A stretch of DNA of 39,534 nucleotides from the NCBI GenBank assembly GCA_964244895.1, contig CAXTKV010000017.1, positions 1-39,534 of the forward strand. Direction: 5' to 3'. Shown here in pieces: positions 23,737 to 27,621 of this stretch. Position 1 is the first letter of the stretch; each line of letters starts with the position of its first letter. The translations under genes and the position numbers were made by a program. The notes beneath the pieces are model-generated. The model saw only the letters and a list, made by a program, of their open reading frames with translations. It ran no database searches and was not told the DNA's origin. The DNA comes from an uncultured Deinococcales bacterium (GTDB taxonomy: Bacteria > Deinococcota > Deinococci > Deinococcales > JAAFIG01).

Positions 23737-25527
23737 ATGCCCGTGATGGATCGCCGCAATTTGCGTTTCACGCTTTTTGAGCTCCTGAACGCCGAAGCCC
23801 TGACGCGGCGCGAGCAGTTCAGCCAGCACTCGCGCGAGACCTTCGAGGCGGCGCTCGAGTTGGCGCTCGAGATCAGCGAAAAGTATTTCGCGACGCACGC
23901 CAGGGAATCCGATCTGAACGAACCTCGCGTCGTGAACGGGCGCGTCGAGACGATCCCGGCAATTCAGGCGGCGCTCGTCGCGTTCCGCGAGGCCGGGTTT
24001 TTCTCGGCGCACGCCAGCCTGGAAGAGGGCGGCATGGGCTTGCCCAATTTGATCTCGCAGGCCGCCCAGGCGATGTTCGTCGGCGCGAACCCCGGCACGG
24101 GCGCGTACGCTTTTTTGACCATCGCGGCGGGCAACCTGATCGAGACTTTCGGGACGGACGCGCAGAAATCCCGCTACCTCGAGCCGATGCGCGCCGGGCG
24201 GTGGTTCGGCACGATGGCGCTCAGCGAACCGCAGGCCGGATCGTCCCTGGCGGACATCACCACCCGCGCTGAGGCGTTGCAGGACGGCTCGTACCGCGTC
24301 ACGGGTTCCAAGATGTGGATTTCTGCGGGCGAACACGAACTGTCTGAAAACATCGTGCATCTCGTGCTGGCGCGGCTCAAAGATGCCCCGGCGGGTGTCA
24401 AGGGCATTTCCTTGTTGATCGTCCCGCGCTACAGACCGAATGGCGCCGCGCTCGAGCCCAACGATGTCAACCTGGGCGGGCTGCTGCACAAGATGGGCTA
24501 CCGGGGCACGACCAGCACGGTGCTGAACTTCGGTGAAGGCGGCGATTGCCGCGCGGAACTCGTCGGGGAAGCCCACAAGGGATTGTCCATGATGTTCCAG
24601 ATGATGAACGAGGCGCGCATCGGCGTCGGCATGGGCGCGGCGATGCTGGCCTATCAGGGCTACCTGTACAGCCTTCAATACGCTAGGGAGCGCGCGCAGG
24701 GCAGGTCGCCATCATCGAAGAACCCGCTCGAGCCTGCGGTCAAAATCGTTCGGCACGCCGATGTCAAACGCATGCTGCTGGCGCAAAAAAGCATCGCGGA
24801 AGGATCGTTCGCGCTCGGGTTGTACTGCGCGCAACTGGTGGACGACCAACGAACCGGAAATGAAACCGCGCGGCGCGAGGCGGGATTGCTGTTGGACATC
24901 CTGACGCCGATCATGAAAGCCTGGGCCAGCCATTACGGGCTGGAAGCCAACTCGCACGCCATTCAGATCCTGGGCGGTTACGGCTACACCCGCGAATACC
25001 CGGTCGAGCAGTTCTACCGCGACAACCGGTTGAACCCGATCCACGAGGGCACAAACGGCGTTCAGGGCATCGACTTGCTGGGTCGAAAAATATCGCAATT
25101 CGACGGTGAATCCCTGAAATTGCTCGAGCGCGAGATCGAACGCGCCATTCGCGACGCGAAACTTCAGCCAGCCACCAAAGACCGGGCCGAGGAACTGGAA
25201 ACCGCGCTGGGCGTCGCGAAAGAAACGACCGCCGCCATGCTGAGCGCGCGCGATTCGGTCGGCGCGGACGCGTTCCTGGCGAACGCATGGCATTACCTGG
25301 AATTGATGGGGCACCTGGTGATCGGCTGGATCTGGCTACAGCAGGCGACCGTCGCGGCGCGCGCGATTCAGATGCAACCCTCAGATTCCGACGCGGATTT
25401 TTACGCGGGCAAGTTGCACACCTGCCGGTACTTTTTTCGCCACGAACTGCCGAAGCTCGCGCACTGGGGGCGCTTATTGCGCGCGATGGACGCGACCACC
25501 CTCGAGATGCGCGAGGAATGGTTCTGA
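23737..25527 (+). CDS. Acyl-CoA dehydrogenase (long ~600-aa type)
   Basis: GTMALSEPQAGSSL, GSKMWIS, MMNEARIG, QILGGYGY, IHEGTNG; RBS AGGAGG. Confidence 0.95.
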   Translation: MPVMDRRNLRFTLFELLNAEALTRREQFSQHSRETFEAALELALEISEKYFATHARESDLNEPRVVNGRVETIPAIQAALVAFREAGFFSAHASLEEGGMGLPNLISQAAQAMFVGANPGTGAYAFLTIAAGNLIETFGTDAQKSRYLEPMRAGRWFGTMALSEPQAGSSLADITTRAEALQDGSYRVTGSKMWISAGEHELSENIVHLVLARLKDAPAGVKGISLLIVPRYRPNGAALEPNDVNLGGLLHKMGYRGTTSTVLNFGEGGDCRAELVGEAHKGLSMMFQMMNEARIGVGMGAAMLAYQGYLYSLQYARERAQGRSPSSKNPLEPAVKIVRHADVKRMLLAQKSIAEGSFALGLYCAQLVDDQRTGNETARREAGLLLDILTPIMKAWASHYGLEANSHAIQILGGYGYTREYPVEQFYRDNRLNPIHEGTNGVQGIDLLGRKISQFDGESLKLLEREIERAIRDAKLQPATKDRAEELETALGVAKETTAAMLSARDSVGADAFLANAWHYLELMGHLVIGWIWLQQATVAARAIQMQPSDSDADFYAGKLHTCRYFFRHELPKLAHWGRLLRAMDATTLEMREEWF

Positions 25528-25614: not shown

Positions 25615-25644
25615 TGGACAGAATCGCGACGGCGCTGCTAGCAT
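25615..25644 (+). promoter_or_regulatory. Promoter of the proS leader
   Basis: TGGACA-18 nt-TAGCAT with extended -10 TG (25636-25637); GTG 6 nt downstream. Confidence 0.65.
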
Positions 25645-25650
25645 GAACGC

Positions 25651-25719
25651 GTGACCGTCCTTTCCCCGCGACCGCCCGGAATTCGCCCCGCGAACGCGGC
25701 GTGTGAGGGCGCGCTCTAA
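25651..25719 (+). CDS. Putative Pro-rich leader peptide MTVLSPRPPGIRPANAACEGAL
   Basis: Leaderless GTG 6 nt after the -10; 4 Pro codons including PRPPG; directly followed by an intrinsic terminator upstream of proS. Confidence 0.6.
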   Translation: MTVLSPRPPGIRPANAACEGAL

Positions 25720-25739
25720 CCGATCAATTCGAGACTTCG

Positions 25740-25773
25740 ACCCGATTCCGCTTGGGAGTCGGGTTTTTTGTTT
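25740..25773 (+). terminator. Intrinsic terminator / attenuator in the proS leader
   Basis: CCCGATTCC-GCTTG-GGAGTCGGG stem followed by TTTTTTGTTT. Confidence 0.85.
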
Positions 25774-25797
25774 GCCCAGATCACCTCAGGAGGAACC

Positions 25798-25878
25798 ATG
25801 CGACCTCGACCGCGTCCGCTCGAGATTGAACCGATCAATGAAGAACACCGTCCTGAACACGATTTTTTGATGCCCTAG
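25798..25878 (+). CDS. Second small uORF MRPRPRPLEIEPINEEHRPEHDFLMP
   Basis: Perfect RBS AGGAGG then AACC-ATG; 6 Pro in 26 aa; 3' half runs into a family A repeat. Confidence 0.5.
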   Translation: MRPRPRPLEIEPINEEHRPEHDFLMP

Positions 25879-25900
25879 ATTCGCGTCCCAGACGGTCTTC
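25843..25900. repeat. Family A repeat (two-arm) in the proS leader
   Basis: GAACACCGTCCTGAACACG...CGTCCCAGACGGTCTTC. Confidence 0.75.
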
Positions 25901-25935
25901 CCACCCCTGACCTCTGATGGCCCTCAAGGAGCCCC

Positions 25936-27621
25936 ATGCGACGAAGCCAACTGCACGTCCCGACGCTGCGCGAGAACCCCACGGAAGCCGAAACCACCTC
26001 GCACCGATTGCTGCTGCGGGCGGGTTTCGTGCGTCCGCTCTCGAGCGGAATTTACTCGATGCTGCCGCTCGGGTTGCGCGTCAAACGCAAGATTGAGAAC
26101 ATCATCCGCGACGAAATGAACGCCATCGGCGCGCAGGAGTTCGAGCTTTCCAACCTTCAGCCCGCCGAAATCTGGAAGGAATCCGGGCGCTGGAACGCGA
26201 TCGGCACGGAGATGCTGCGCCTGCGCGACCGTTCCGGACGGGAAATGTGCTTAGGGATGACGCACGAGGAGATCTTCACGGCGCTGGCTCGGGAACTGCG
26301 TTCGTACCGCGAACTGCCCACGATCTGGTACCAGATCGTCAAGAAATTCCGCGACGAACCGCGACCCAAGGGCGGCATGATCCGGCTGCGCGAATTCACC
26401 ATGAAGGACTCGTACAGCTTCGCGCTGGACGACGCCGGACTGGACGAGCAATTCCGCGCGCACGAGGGCGCGTACCGCCGAATCTTCGAGCGTTGCGGCC
26501 TGGAAATCGTGGTGGCGCGCGCCGACAACGGCATGATGGGCGGCACGGATTCGCTGGAATTCGTGGCGCTCTTGGACGCGGGCGAGGACTGGGTGGCGGT
26601 CGCACCGTCCGGTTGGGCGGCGAACCTCGAGGTCGCCACGGGTCTGCTCGAGCCCGTGTCTGACGAAGGTGTGGGCACGACCGTCCAGGAGTTCGCCACG
26701 CCGGGAATCCTGACGATTGATGCGTTGGAAAAATTCGGCGTGCCCGCCGTGCGCCAGATGAAAACCCTGATCTACGTCGCGCAGGGCGAACCGGTGGTGA
26801 TCGTGCTGCGCGGTGATCACCAACTCAACGAAAGCAAGCTCGCGCACGCGCTGGGCACGACCGACATCCGGGCCGCCGAACCGGAGGAAGCCTATGAACT
26901 GATGGGCGCGAACTTCGGCAGCCTCGGGCCAGTGCCCACGAACGGAGGCGGCCTTAAGGCGCGAATCATCGCGGATCGGGCTTTAGAGGGTCGCCAGGGC
27001 ATGGTCAGCGGCGCGACCAGGGACGGCTACCACCTTTCAGGACTCGAGCCTGGGCGGGATTTCCAGTGCCGTTTCGCGGATGTTCGCACCGTCAAAAGCG
27101 GTGAGATGTCACCGGACGGTTCGGGCGCTCTTCGGATCGAACGCGGGCTGGAACTGGGCCACATCTTCAAGCTCGGCACGCGCTACGCCAGCGCGTTGGG
27201 TGCGAACGTGACCGGCAAGGACGGTAAGAGCGCAACCCTGGTGATGGGTTCTTACGGCATCGGCGTGGAACGTTTGATGGCCGCCATCGCGGAACGTTAC
27301 GCGGACGAGCGCGGTCTGATCTGGCCTCGGGCGGTGTCCCCGTTCGACGTGACCGTGCTGGAACTCGGTGATACGGGCGGTGCTGCGCTGCGCCTCCACG
27401 ACGAATTGCAGGCCGCAGGTCTGGACGCGCTGCTGGACGACCGCGACGAGCGCGCCGGGATGAAATTCACCGAATTCGAGTTGATCGGCGTACCCGTCGC
27501 CGTGGTCGTGGGTTCTCGAGGCCTGGAACGCGGCCTGGTCGAGTTGCGCGAACGCGCGACCGGCATCAACACGGAAATCAAGCTTGAGGAGATCCGGCAG
27601 GTGTTGCTCGAGATGCGCTGA
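25936..27621 (+). CDS. proS: Proline--tRNA ligase, bacterial (prokaryotic) type with INS editing domain
   Basis: SHRLLLRAGF, KFRDEPRP, REFTMKDSYSF, INS motifs KTL and GSLGP, ELGHIFKLGTRY, MGSYGIGVERL; RBS AAGGAG. Confidence 0.97.
   Translation: MRRSQLHVPTLRENPTEAETTSHRLLLRAGFVRPLSSGIYSMLPLGLRVKRKIENIIRDEMNAIGAQEFELSNLQPAEIWKESGRWNAIGTEMLRLRDRSGREMCLGMTHEEIFTALARELRSYRELPTIWYQIVKKFRDEPRPKGGMIRLREFTMKDSYSFALDDAGLDEQFRAHEGAYRRIFERCGLEIVVARADNGMMGGTDSLEFVALLDAGEDWVAVAPSGWAANLEVATGLLEPVSDEGVGTTVQEFATPGILTIDALEKFGVPAVRQMKTLIYVAQGEPVVIVLRGDHQLNESKLAHALGTTDIRAAEPEEAYELMGANFGSLGPVPTNGGGLKARIIADRALEGRQGMVSGATRDGYHLSGLEPGRDFQCRFADVRTVKSGEMSPDGSGALRIERGLELGHIFKLGTRYASALGANVTGKDGKSATLVMGSYGIGVERLMAAIAERYADERGLIWPRAVSPFDVTVLELGDTGGAALRLHDELQAAGLDALLDDRDERAGMKFTEFELIGVPVAVVVGSRGLERGLVELRERATGINTEIKLEEIRQVLLEMR

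Follow-up and report, generated by a model that had tools for sequence, protein, structure and literature searches.

A conserved proline-codon leader upstream of a second, P-type prolyl-tRNA synthetase gene in Deinococcales as a likely ribosome-mediated transcription attenuator

The prolyl-tRNA synthetase (ProRS) gene proS of an uncultured Deinococcales bacterium is preceded by a conserved leader which is likely, with a probability of about 0.78, to act as a ribosome-mediated transcription attenuator inducing this second, P-type proS when the ribosome stalls at Pro codons of a small upstream ORF (uORF), the signal being most likely charged tRNA-Pro. Attenuation of proS through Pro codons had been proposed in an earlier note on this DNA and is well supported by comparison of the sequence with that of relatives. 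Such a reading is preferred because the element is kept in 17/17 family genomes with differing upstream DNA; because signs of coding are seen, such as an in-frame first Pro codon, a synonymous change in the second one and freedom of frame beyond the Pro codons; because the distances from Pro to GCC and from Pro to GCGG are fixed, and the modelled pairing appears with the ribosome at the conserved Pro and up to three codons past it; because eight other amino-acid genes of the genome share the layout, each with its own residue; and because other designs of Pro leader sit on other proS lineages (in the families f2 and f3 of the order and in Anaerolineae).

The window (the whole stretch of DNA analysed, 39,534 nt) carries the features collected in Table 1, and the promoter, the 22-codon uORF with four Pro codons and the terminator described by the earlier note upstream of proS were each found in their place. 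The leader promoter is the sole match of the promoter scan within 24-28 kb (0.4 expected), with no match there 3' of the leader terminator. The GTG of the uORF is placed 6 nt past the -10 box, and Pro stands at codons 6, 8, 9 and 13, the CCCGC of these Pro codons being able to pair with GCGG when the RNA is untranslated. The terminator stem starts 19 nt past the uORF stop and ends in a U6 tract (25764-25769), from which proS is separated by a spacer of 165 nt; the folding energy of the whole leader region is ordinary (z -1.38).

Table 1. Features of the proS leader region in the window
Feature	Position	Strand	Details
sigma-70-type promoter	25615..25644	+	TGGACA (25615-25620), 18 nt, extended -10 TG-N-TAGCAT (TG 25636-37, hexamer 25639-44)
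predicted leaderless leader-peptide ORF	25651..25719	+	22 codons, MTVLSPRPPGIRPANAACEGAL, GTG start, TAA 25717-19
putative sensing codons	25665..25677	+	Pro6 (CCG), Pro8 (CCG, positionally conserved Pro), Pro9 (CCC)
predicted protector hairpin	25684..25711	+	CGCCC with GGGCG, GCGG inside; -12.2 kcal/mol in the window
GCGG, predicted antiterminator 5' strand	25696..25699	+	partner CCGC 25748-51
intrinsic terminator	25739..25773	+	stem 25739-25765, 11 bp, -18.8 kcal/mol; CCGC 25748-51 at top
AGGAGG and 26-codon ORF	25788..25878	+	ATG 25798, MRPRPRP...; 3' of the terminator; in this genome only
dispersed repeat copy	25842..25903	+	about 60 bp, outside the switch; 44 genome matches including the self-match
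proS, bacterial (P-type) prolyl-tRNA synthetase with editing domain	25936..27621	+	NF006625, TIGR00409 over cut-off; PF04073

The second small ORF in the spacer (25798-25878) was ruled out as a conserved part of the leader, its 3' half lying in the dispersed repeat and the U-tract lying only 14-66 nt from the proS ATG in 13/17 leaders (14-16 nt in five spacers). Its AGGAGG and ATG-CGA resemble the start region of proS itself (AAGGAG, ATG-CGA) about 140 nt downstream, and it is possibly a duplicated proS start; by its sequence, which begins R-P-R-P-R-P, it could also be a chance second Pro sensor. Neither of the two small ORFs of the window matched an NCBIfam family at E<=1e-20. The earlier note is silent on this second ORF, on the dispersed repeat and on the E-type proS of the genome. 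Another copy of the dispersed repeat lies at C1:2476-2537 of the window genome (G000), upstream of its E-type proS, and some of the copies look like terminators in the genome-wide leader scan.

The proS 5' end is assembled in 17 of the 19 family genomes, and a promoter, a homologous uORF with P-[RQ]-P and a terminator were found in all 17, which is the conservation of Pro codons and a terminator upstream of orthologous proS that the earlier note had proposed to test. This element, type A, was also found in one genome of family f2 (G126), in which the N-terminus of proS resembles that of family f1 (locus L185), which suggests that gene and leader were transferred together. The 17 distinct type-A leaders (the family set plus G126, minus the identical copy in G017) are mutually related, six of them near-copies, and counts over them are not independent. 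No change was seen in any of them in the start-codon TG (ATG or GTG in 17/17), in CCCGC over the first Pro codon (Pro1), in bases 1 and 2 of Pro2, in GCC or GCGG, or in the U-tract. Pro1 is in frame in 17/17, at a distance of 12, 15 or 18 nt from the start codon, and Pro2 ends in G, A or T (CCG/CCA/CCT), a synonymous change only; GCGG is invariant in 17/17 and yet stands in all three reading frames, a pattern that would follow if translation counted as far as the Pro codons and pairing of the RNA beyond them. A Pro codon begins 12-13 nt before the invariant GCC and 23-25 nt before GCGG in every leader. The terminator is present in 17/17 with differing stem sequences, and CCGC stands at its top in 17/17 distinct leaders, against 16/534 terminator-like hairpins of the window genome. 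TANNNT is found 6-7 nt before the start codon in 15/17, 9 nt before it in one, and is absent in one.

The candidate antiterminator was modelled by a mask scan, in which transcripts were cut before the terminator 3' arm and a ribosome mask with its leading edge at +13 was moved codon by codon. Over the 17 leaders the mean probability of the in-register GCGG/CCGC helix was 0.00 without a ribosome and <=0.03 before the conserved Pro, then 0.36, 0.63, 0.77 and 0.73 at codons 0 to +3 from it, and <=0.02 beyond; with leading edges of +12 and +15 the pairing window moves by about one codon. The switch contrast was 0.48 versus 0.05-0.17 in 12 sets with shuffled uORF tails. Before the ribosome arrives, the GCC arm pairs 12-13 nt past GCGG and so encloses it in 13/17 leaders, and pairs onto GCGG itself in 2/17; in the leaders of G004 and G006 the in-register pairing was absent from the scan. 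Covariation of the GCGG/CCGC helix is zero because the helix never varies (one of the 17 rows being misaligned), its duplex energy is better than in shuffles at p<0.05 in only 1/17 leaders, and cognate pairs are not better by duplex energy than cross-genus pairs. In full-length equilibrium folds with ribosome masks the terminator was not switched off at the Pro codons, and therefore any switch must be kinetic. Both alternative pairings given by the earlier note are possible (25677-85 with 25743-50, and 25684-88 with 25707-11), and the CGCCC/GGGCG one corresponds to the conserved protector hairpin. The other stretch, CGGAATTCG, was rejected as a conserved antiterminator: it occurs in the window genome only, and its modelled pairing with the terminator arm is seen with the ribosome at codons 4-5 (0.48-0.96) and from codon 17 to the stop (up to 0.77), but is 0.00 at Pro8/9, where a stalled ribosome covers the stretch.

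The following order of events is proposed. Transcription would start at or beside the GTG, and the ribosome would load directly. With ample Pro-tRNA it would pass through and mask GCGG, so that the terminator forms; with no ribosome on the RNA the terminator would form too, GCGG being sequestered either in the protector hairpin or through pairing with the CCGC that lies in the Pro codons. If instead the ribosome pauses at the conserved Pro or within the next three codons, it would mask the 5' arm of the protector and leave GCGG free, and the freed GCGG with the following G-rich run could pair with CCGC and the terminator 5' arm before the 3' arm is made; RNA polymerase, thus antiterminated, would read into proS. 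The basal ProRS activity would be provided by the E-type proS.

Several other explanations have to be weighed against this attenuator. The folding with masked ribosomes, suggested by the earlier note, favours the switch in the average over the 17 leaders but not in the window copy, whose contrast is not above that of its shuffles (0.15 vs 0.19) and is the second-weakest of the 17; its in-register pairing is 0.02, 0.02, 0.35 and 0.51 at codons 0 to +3, the core helix has just 4 bp in register, a competing GGAAU pairing is also seen when the ribosome is near the stop, and a repeat and an extra ORF are inserted in the spacer. The family element might thus be a real attenuator of which the window copy has decayed to a leaky terminator damping proS constitutively; however, the invariant bases, frame, spacing and promoter are all intact in the window, and the pairing of the terminator arm still depends on the modelled ribosome, being 0.00-0.02 without one, 0.11-0.34 with it at codons 6-11 and 0.00-0.03 with it at codons 12-14, so that such decay is considered unlikely. 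About equally improbable is that the translated attenuator senses EF-P activity or the general speed of elongation rather than Pro-tRNA charging. The gene efp is present in the window genome, the window peptide contains P-P-G, adjacent prolines are found in 6/17 type-A and 6/8 type-B leaders, and PPP in type C (for types B and C see below). The stalling at PPG put forward by the earlier note does not hold for the family, though: PPG is found in the window genome only, and 11/17 type-A leaders are devoid of adjacent prolines, including all six of the g4 group, whose P-R-P argues against EF-P as the main signal. Many Anaerolineae leaders are likewise P-x-P, the controlled gene is the Pro-charging enzyme, and a synthetic RPAP motif caused no pausing in the HisL reporter, in the part of the source consulted (PMC8129111).

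Less likely still is an RNA-only sensor (T-box-like, a riboswitch or a protein-binding leader) with an incidental ORF. Each of the most conserved blocks (CCCGC, GCC, GCGG and CCGC) could be taken for an element of RNA pairing, and the Pro codons show no excess: the window uORF has 4 Pro where shuffling it gives a mean of 3.8 (p=0.58), and none of the 17 type-A leaders is enriched against its shuffles (p 0.16-0.85). The metG, trpE and aspS leader peptides of the same genome have 3 Pro each, and several accepted leaders in Table S9 of the Deinococcus deserti study have just one or two cognate codons (PMC4007540). Against a pure RNA sensor, the start codon, in-frame Pro and stop are kept in 17/17, Pro2 changes at its wobble base, and the modelled structure switches only with a ribosome placed on the leader. 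The Rfam search over the window gave no match in the leader at gathering, its sole match being a tRNA fragment at 1-45 that is cut off by the contig start; at E<=0.5 over 8 leader loci there was one chance match (E 0.3), outside every leader, and T-box features (Stem I with specifier loop, antiterminator bulge) gave no Rfam match over the leader at gathering or at E<=0.5. The least credible explanation is that the terminator merely ends the mRNA of the acyl-CoA dehydrogenase, whose gene runs in the same direction and ends at 25527, and that proS has its own downstream promoter, for which the spacer offers one TANNNT. The dehydrogenase is, however, upstream in 0/16 other leader loci, each with >=358 nt of upstream DNA, in contrast to what the earlier note had allowed for; TANNNT is absent from 12/17 spacers between terminator and proS, five spacers measure only 14-16 nt, and the promoter scan is empty 3' of the terminator.

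The attenuator, if such it is, belongs to the second ProRS of the organism. The window proS reaches 664 bits for the PRK09194 equivalog (cut-off 558), and an archaeal-type (E-type) proS over cut-off lies elsewhere in the same genome (G000:C1:2639-4066), so that the window gene is a second ProRS. The E-type enzyme matches best PDB 1h4q (E 1e-198), presumably the Thermus enzyme, and its gene has TAGACT 8 nt before the ATG, with no uORF and no leader. The E-type proS was found in 66/72 genomes tested, and the P-type in 69/301 genomes of the order: in f1 15/18, f2 17/96, f3 36/95 and the window genome, with 0/23 in f4 and 0/68 in f5. Both types adjoin in L128 (G283, divergent) and stand in tandem in L281 (G304) and in several Anaerolineae such as G446, G492 and G460. 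A rule that the leader is found only on an auxiliary ProRS was rejected, as five leaderless f2 P-type genes share the genome with an E-type gene. No E-type match was found in two leader-bearing f2 genomes and in 8/17 leader-bearing Anaerolineae genomes, all of these being incomplete assemblies, and the latter count implies that auxiliary enzymes are not the only ones to carry the leader. Three f2 genomes of g41 agree with the auxiliary rule, lacking both an E-type match and a leader, but represent one clade only.

Other Pro-leader designs were found on other proS genes. In f2, 8/17 P-type genes have a type-B leader, one has type A, and in eight none was found, one of these eight loci being partly masked and one lying behind an apparent transposase gene. 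In type B a CCG codon stands 12 nt before AGGGG, which pairs with the terminator CCCC (0.87-1.00) in 6/8 with the A site at that Pro and not beyond. In f3, Pro leaders were found in 36/36 genomes carrying P-type proS (type C in 32 by script and in two more by eye; G283 and G133 carry divergent Pro-rich uORFs). Type C reads ..GLPV[LR]PPP[SFA]GV stop and has no U-tract terminator; it was observed at L019, L144, L146, L151, L152, L155-L157, L159-L178, L180-L182, L184, L201 and L203, and in some folds its Pro codons pair with the Shine-Dalgarno (SD) region of proS, which hints at translational or Rho-dependent control. The modelled accessibility of the SD rises only from 0.34 to 0.44 (up in 25/32). 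Among 60 Anaerolineae loci, relatives of two Chloroflexota genomes, a Pro-rich uORF with a terminator was seen by eye in 17 and by the strict script in 10 of 52 parsed; a further design was seen in these relatives at L289, L294, L296, L302 and L307, where the uORF ends in TCTGGA or CCTGG, complementary to TCCAG of the terminator. A Pro-rich uORF with a terminator was found in 0/77 metagenome loci of non-family P-type proS (80 scanned, 3 too short) and in 2 of the 20 examined out of 80 other genome-contig P-type loci. The enzymes of the A, B and C designs scatter among other phyla in quick trees, type A grouping with an Acidobacteriota enzyme and with metagenome enzymes, among which such a leader was seen in 0/77, and type B with Chloroflexota, and a 26-protein tree rejects the monophyly of A+B+C (p-AU 7e-41 under LG+G4, for a group picked after the first tree). 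To judge from these phylogenies, the proS genes with the A, B and C designs were separately acquired within one order.

The layout of a -10 box, uORF, terminator and gene recurs in the window genome, where the scan gave 33 candidates. Besides proS, eight amino-acid genes have a uORF holding the matching residue: tyrS, ilvB, leuA, leuS, metG, trpE, non-discriminating aspS (by NCBIfam) and pheS (by eye from the ORF), at the candidate leaderless leader loci L191-L198 (G000 C4, C11, C30, C68, C136, C154, C80). From these sequences the organism appears to use the leader-peptide device widely, and a Pro leader at proS fits the set. At L199 (G000 C76 near 13422, minus strand) a Tyr/Phe-rich uORF is followed by a strong terminator, and the scanned downstream frame, which matched no family, is probably the wrong frame; by analogy with D. 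deserti Table S9 our guess would be a DAHP synthase leader. In D. deserti, according to the accessible part of the study, 14 leaderless leader-peptide attenuators were predicted with the uORF at the mRNA 5' end, likewise upstream of aminoacyl-tRNA synthetase (aaRS) and amino-acid genes, and the layout is the same for all eight leader genes above, which are present in its Table S9 (PMC4007540). Unlike the window, that table is without a proline or proS entry, and the listed start site of the 499-aa D. deserti proS coincides with the start codon; the text consulted gives no antiterminator model for such a leader, whereas the window has a candidate one (PMC4007540).

A wider reading, which we hold only tentatively and consider rather doubtful, is that the leader is a fail-safe sensor of the housekeeping E-type ProRS: when this enzyme is inhibited or damaged, stalling at Pro codons would induce the horizontally acquired, editing-competent P-type ProRS, and the P-type proS would have been gained at least three times in the order, each time with its own Pro-leader design (two with intrinsic terminators, one without). 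Were it true, Pro-codon attenuation of ProRS would be widespread, would have evolved repeatedly and would form an unreported class, and would point to a natural pressure on the E-type ProRS. The attenuator as such would extend leader-peptide attenuation to a further amino acid, proline, and a further synthetase, ProRS, would explain the tuning of proS in bacteria without T-boxes, and would give a reason for having two structurally different ProRS, one leaderless and one inducible. The f3 genomes with type-C leaders, several of them in few contigs, should make the idea testable in a cultured strain, and the leader itself could be turned into a compact in-vivo sensor for Pro-tRNA charging or for ProRS inhibitors.

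A known case of an aaRS operon under such control is E. coli pheM-pheST, a leader-peptide attenuator. The E. coli leaders are SD-led and carry runs of cognate codons, while type A has no SD and two to five scattered Pro codons, and its core helix is short, of 4 bp, and aimed at the terminator top, unlike those of pheM-pheST, hisL and trpL. As far as the consulted descriptions of hisL and trpL go, the logic of protector, antiterminator and terminator set by the ribosome position is the one proposed for the window. The auxiliary TrpRS gene of Streptomyces was reportedly placed under ribosome-mediated attenuation by Vecchione and Sello in 2010; there, as with the putative attenuator of the window, the controlled gene is an auxiliary aaRS copy and a same-specificity synthetase, in the window genome the leaderless E-type proS, stands elsewhere, the differences being the amino acid and the reported antibiotic resistance of the Streptomyces paralog, the window pair being instead of different structural types. 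In Salmonella, stalling at Pro codons of the mgtA and mgtCBR leaders is said to raise downstream expression; Pro stalling would be shared with the window, but the sequence is unrelated and the target is Mg2+ transport, not ProRS. The T-box (RF00230) also ties proS to tRNA-Pro charging by antitermination, the tRNA binding the RNA directly with no need of translation. The attenuator survey of Lopatovskaya (2010) is said to list genes without proS.

A T-box context is tabulated for proS and an unclassified candidate 5'UTR is given upstream of V. cholerae proS (PMC2836559). At the Pro-Pro of E. coli ilvL, extra ProRS is stated to cut induction from 3.1- to 1.5-fold, so that stalling at Pro codons raises expression there as well, but of branched-chain synthesis, not of ProRS, and from an unrelated sequence (PMC8384417). 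The leaderless leaders of alaS, thrS, trpS and leuS in S. lividans, as far as that text goes, are likewise cases of aaRS attenuation, for other amino acids (PMC8079986). Bacillus thuringiensis also has both P- and E-type ProRS, reported in the part consulted as constitutively expressed, whereas in the window genome a leader and terminator stand on the P-type and none on the E-type gene (PMC11229370). A Pro leader-peptide attenuator of proS was found in no description returned by full-text literature searches, and by a term search it is absent from the main text of PMC4007540, PMC8079986, PMC2965389, PMC11109978, PMC8632094 and PMC4833913, the search covering also Table S9 and two of the three supplements of PMC4007540, while the supplements of the other five papers could list one. 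The attenuation device itself is classical, and what would be new is its target, proline and ProRS, its pairing with a leaderless E-type gene, and the three designs within one order.
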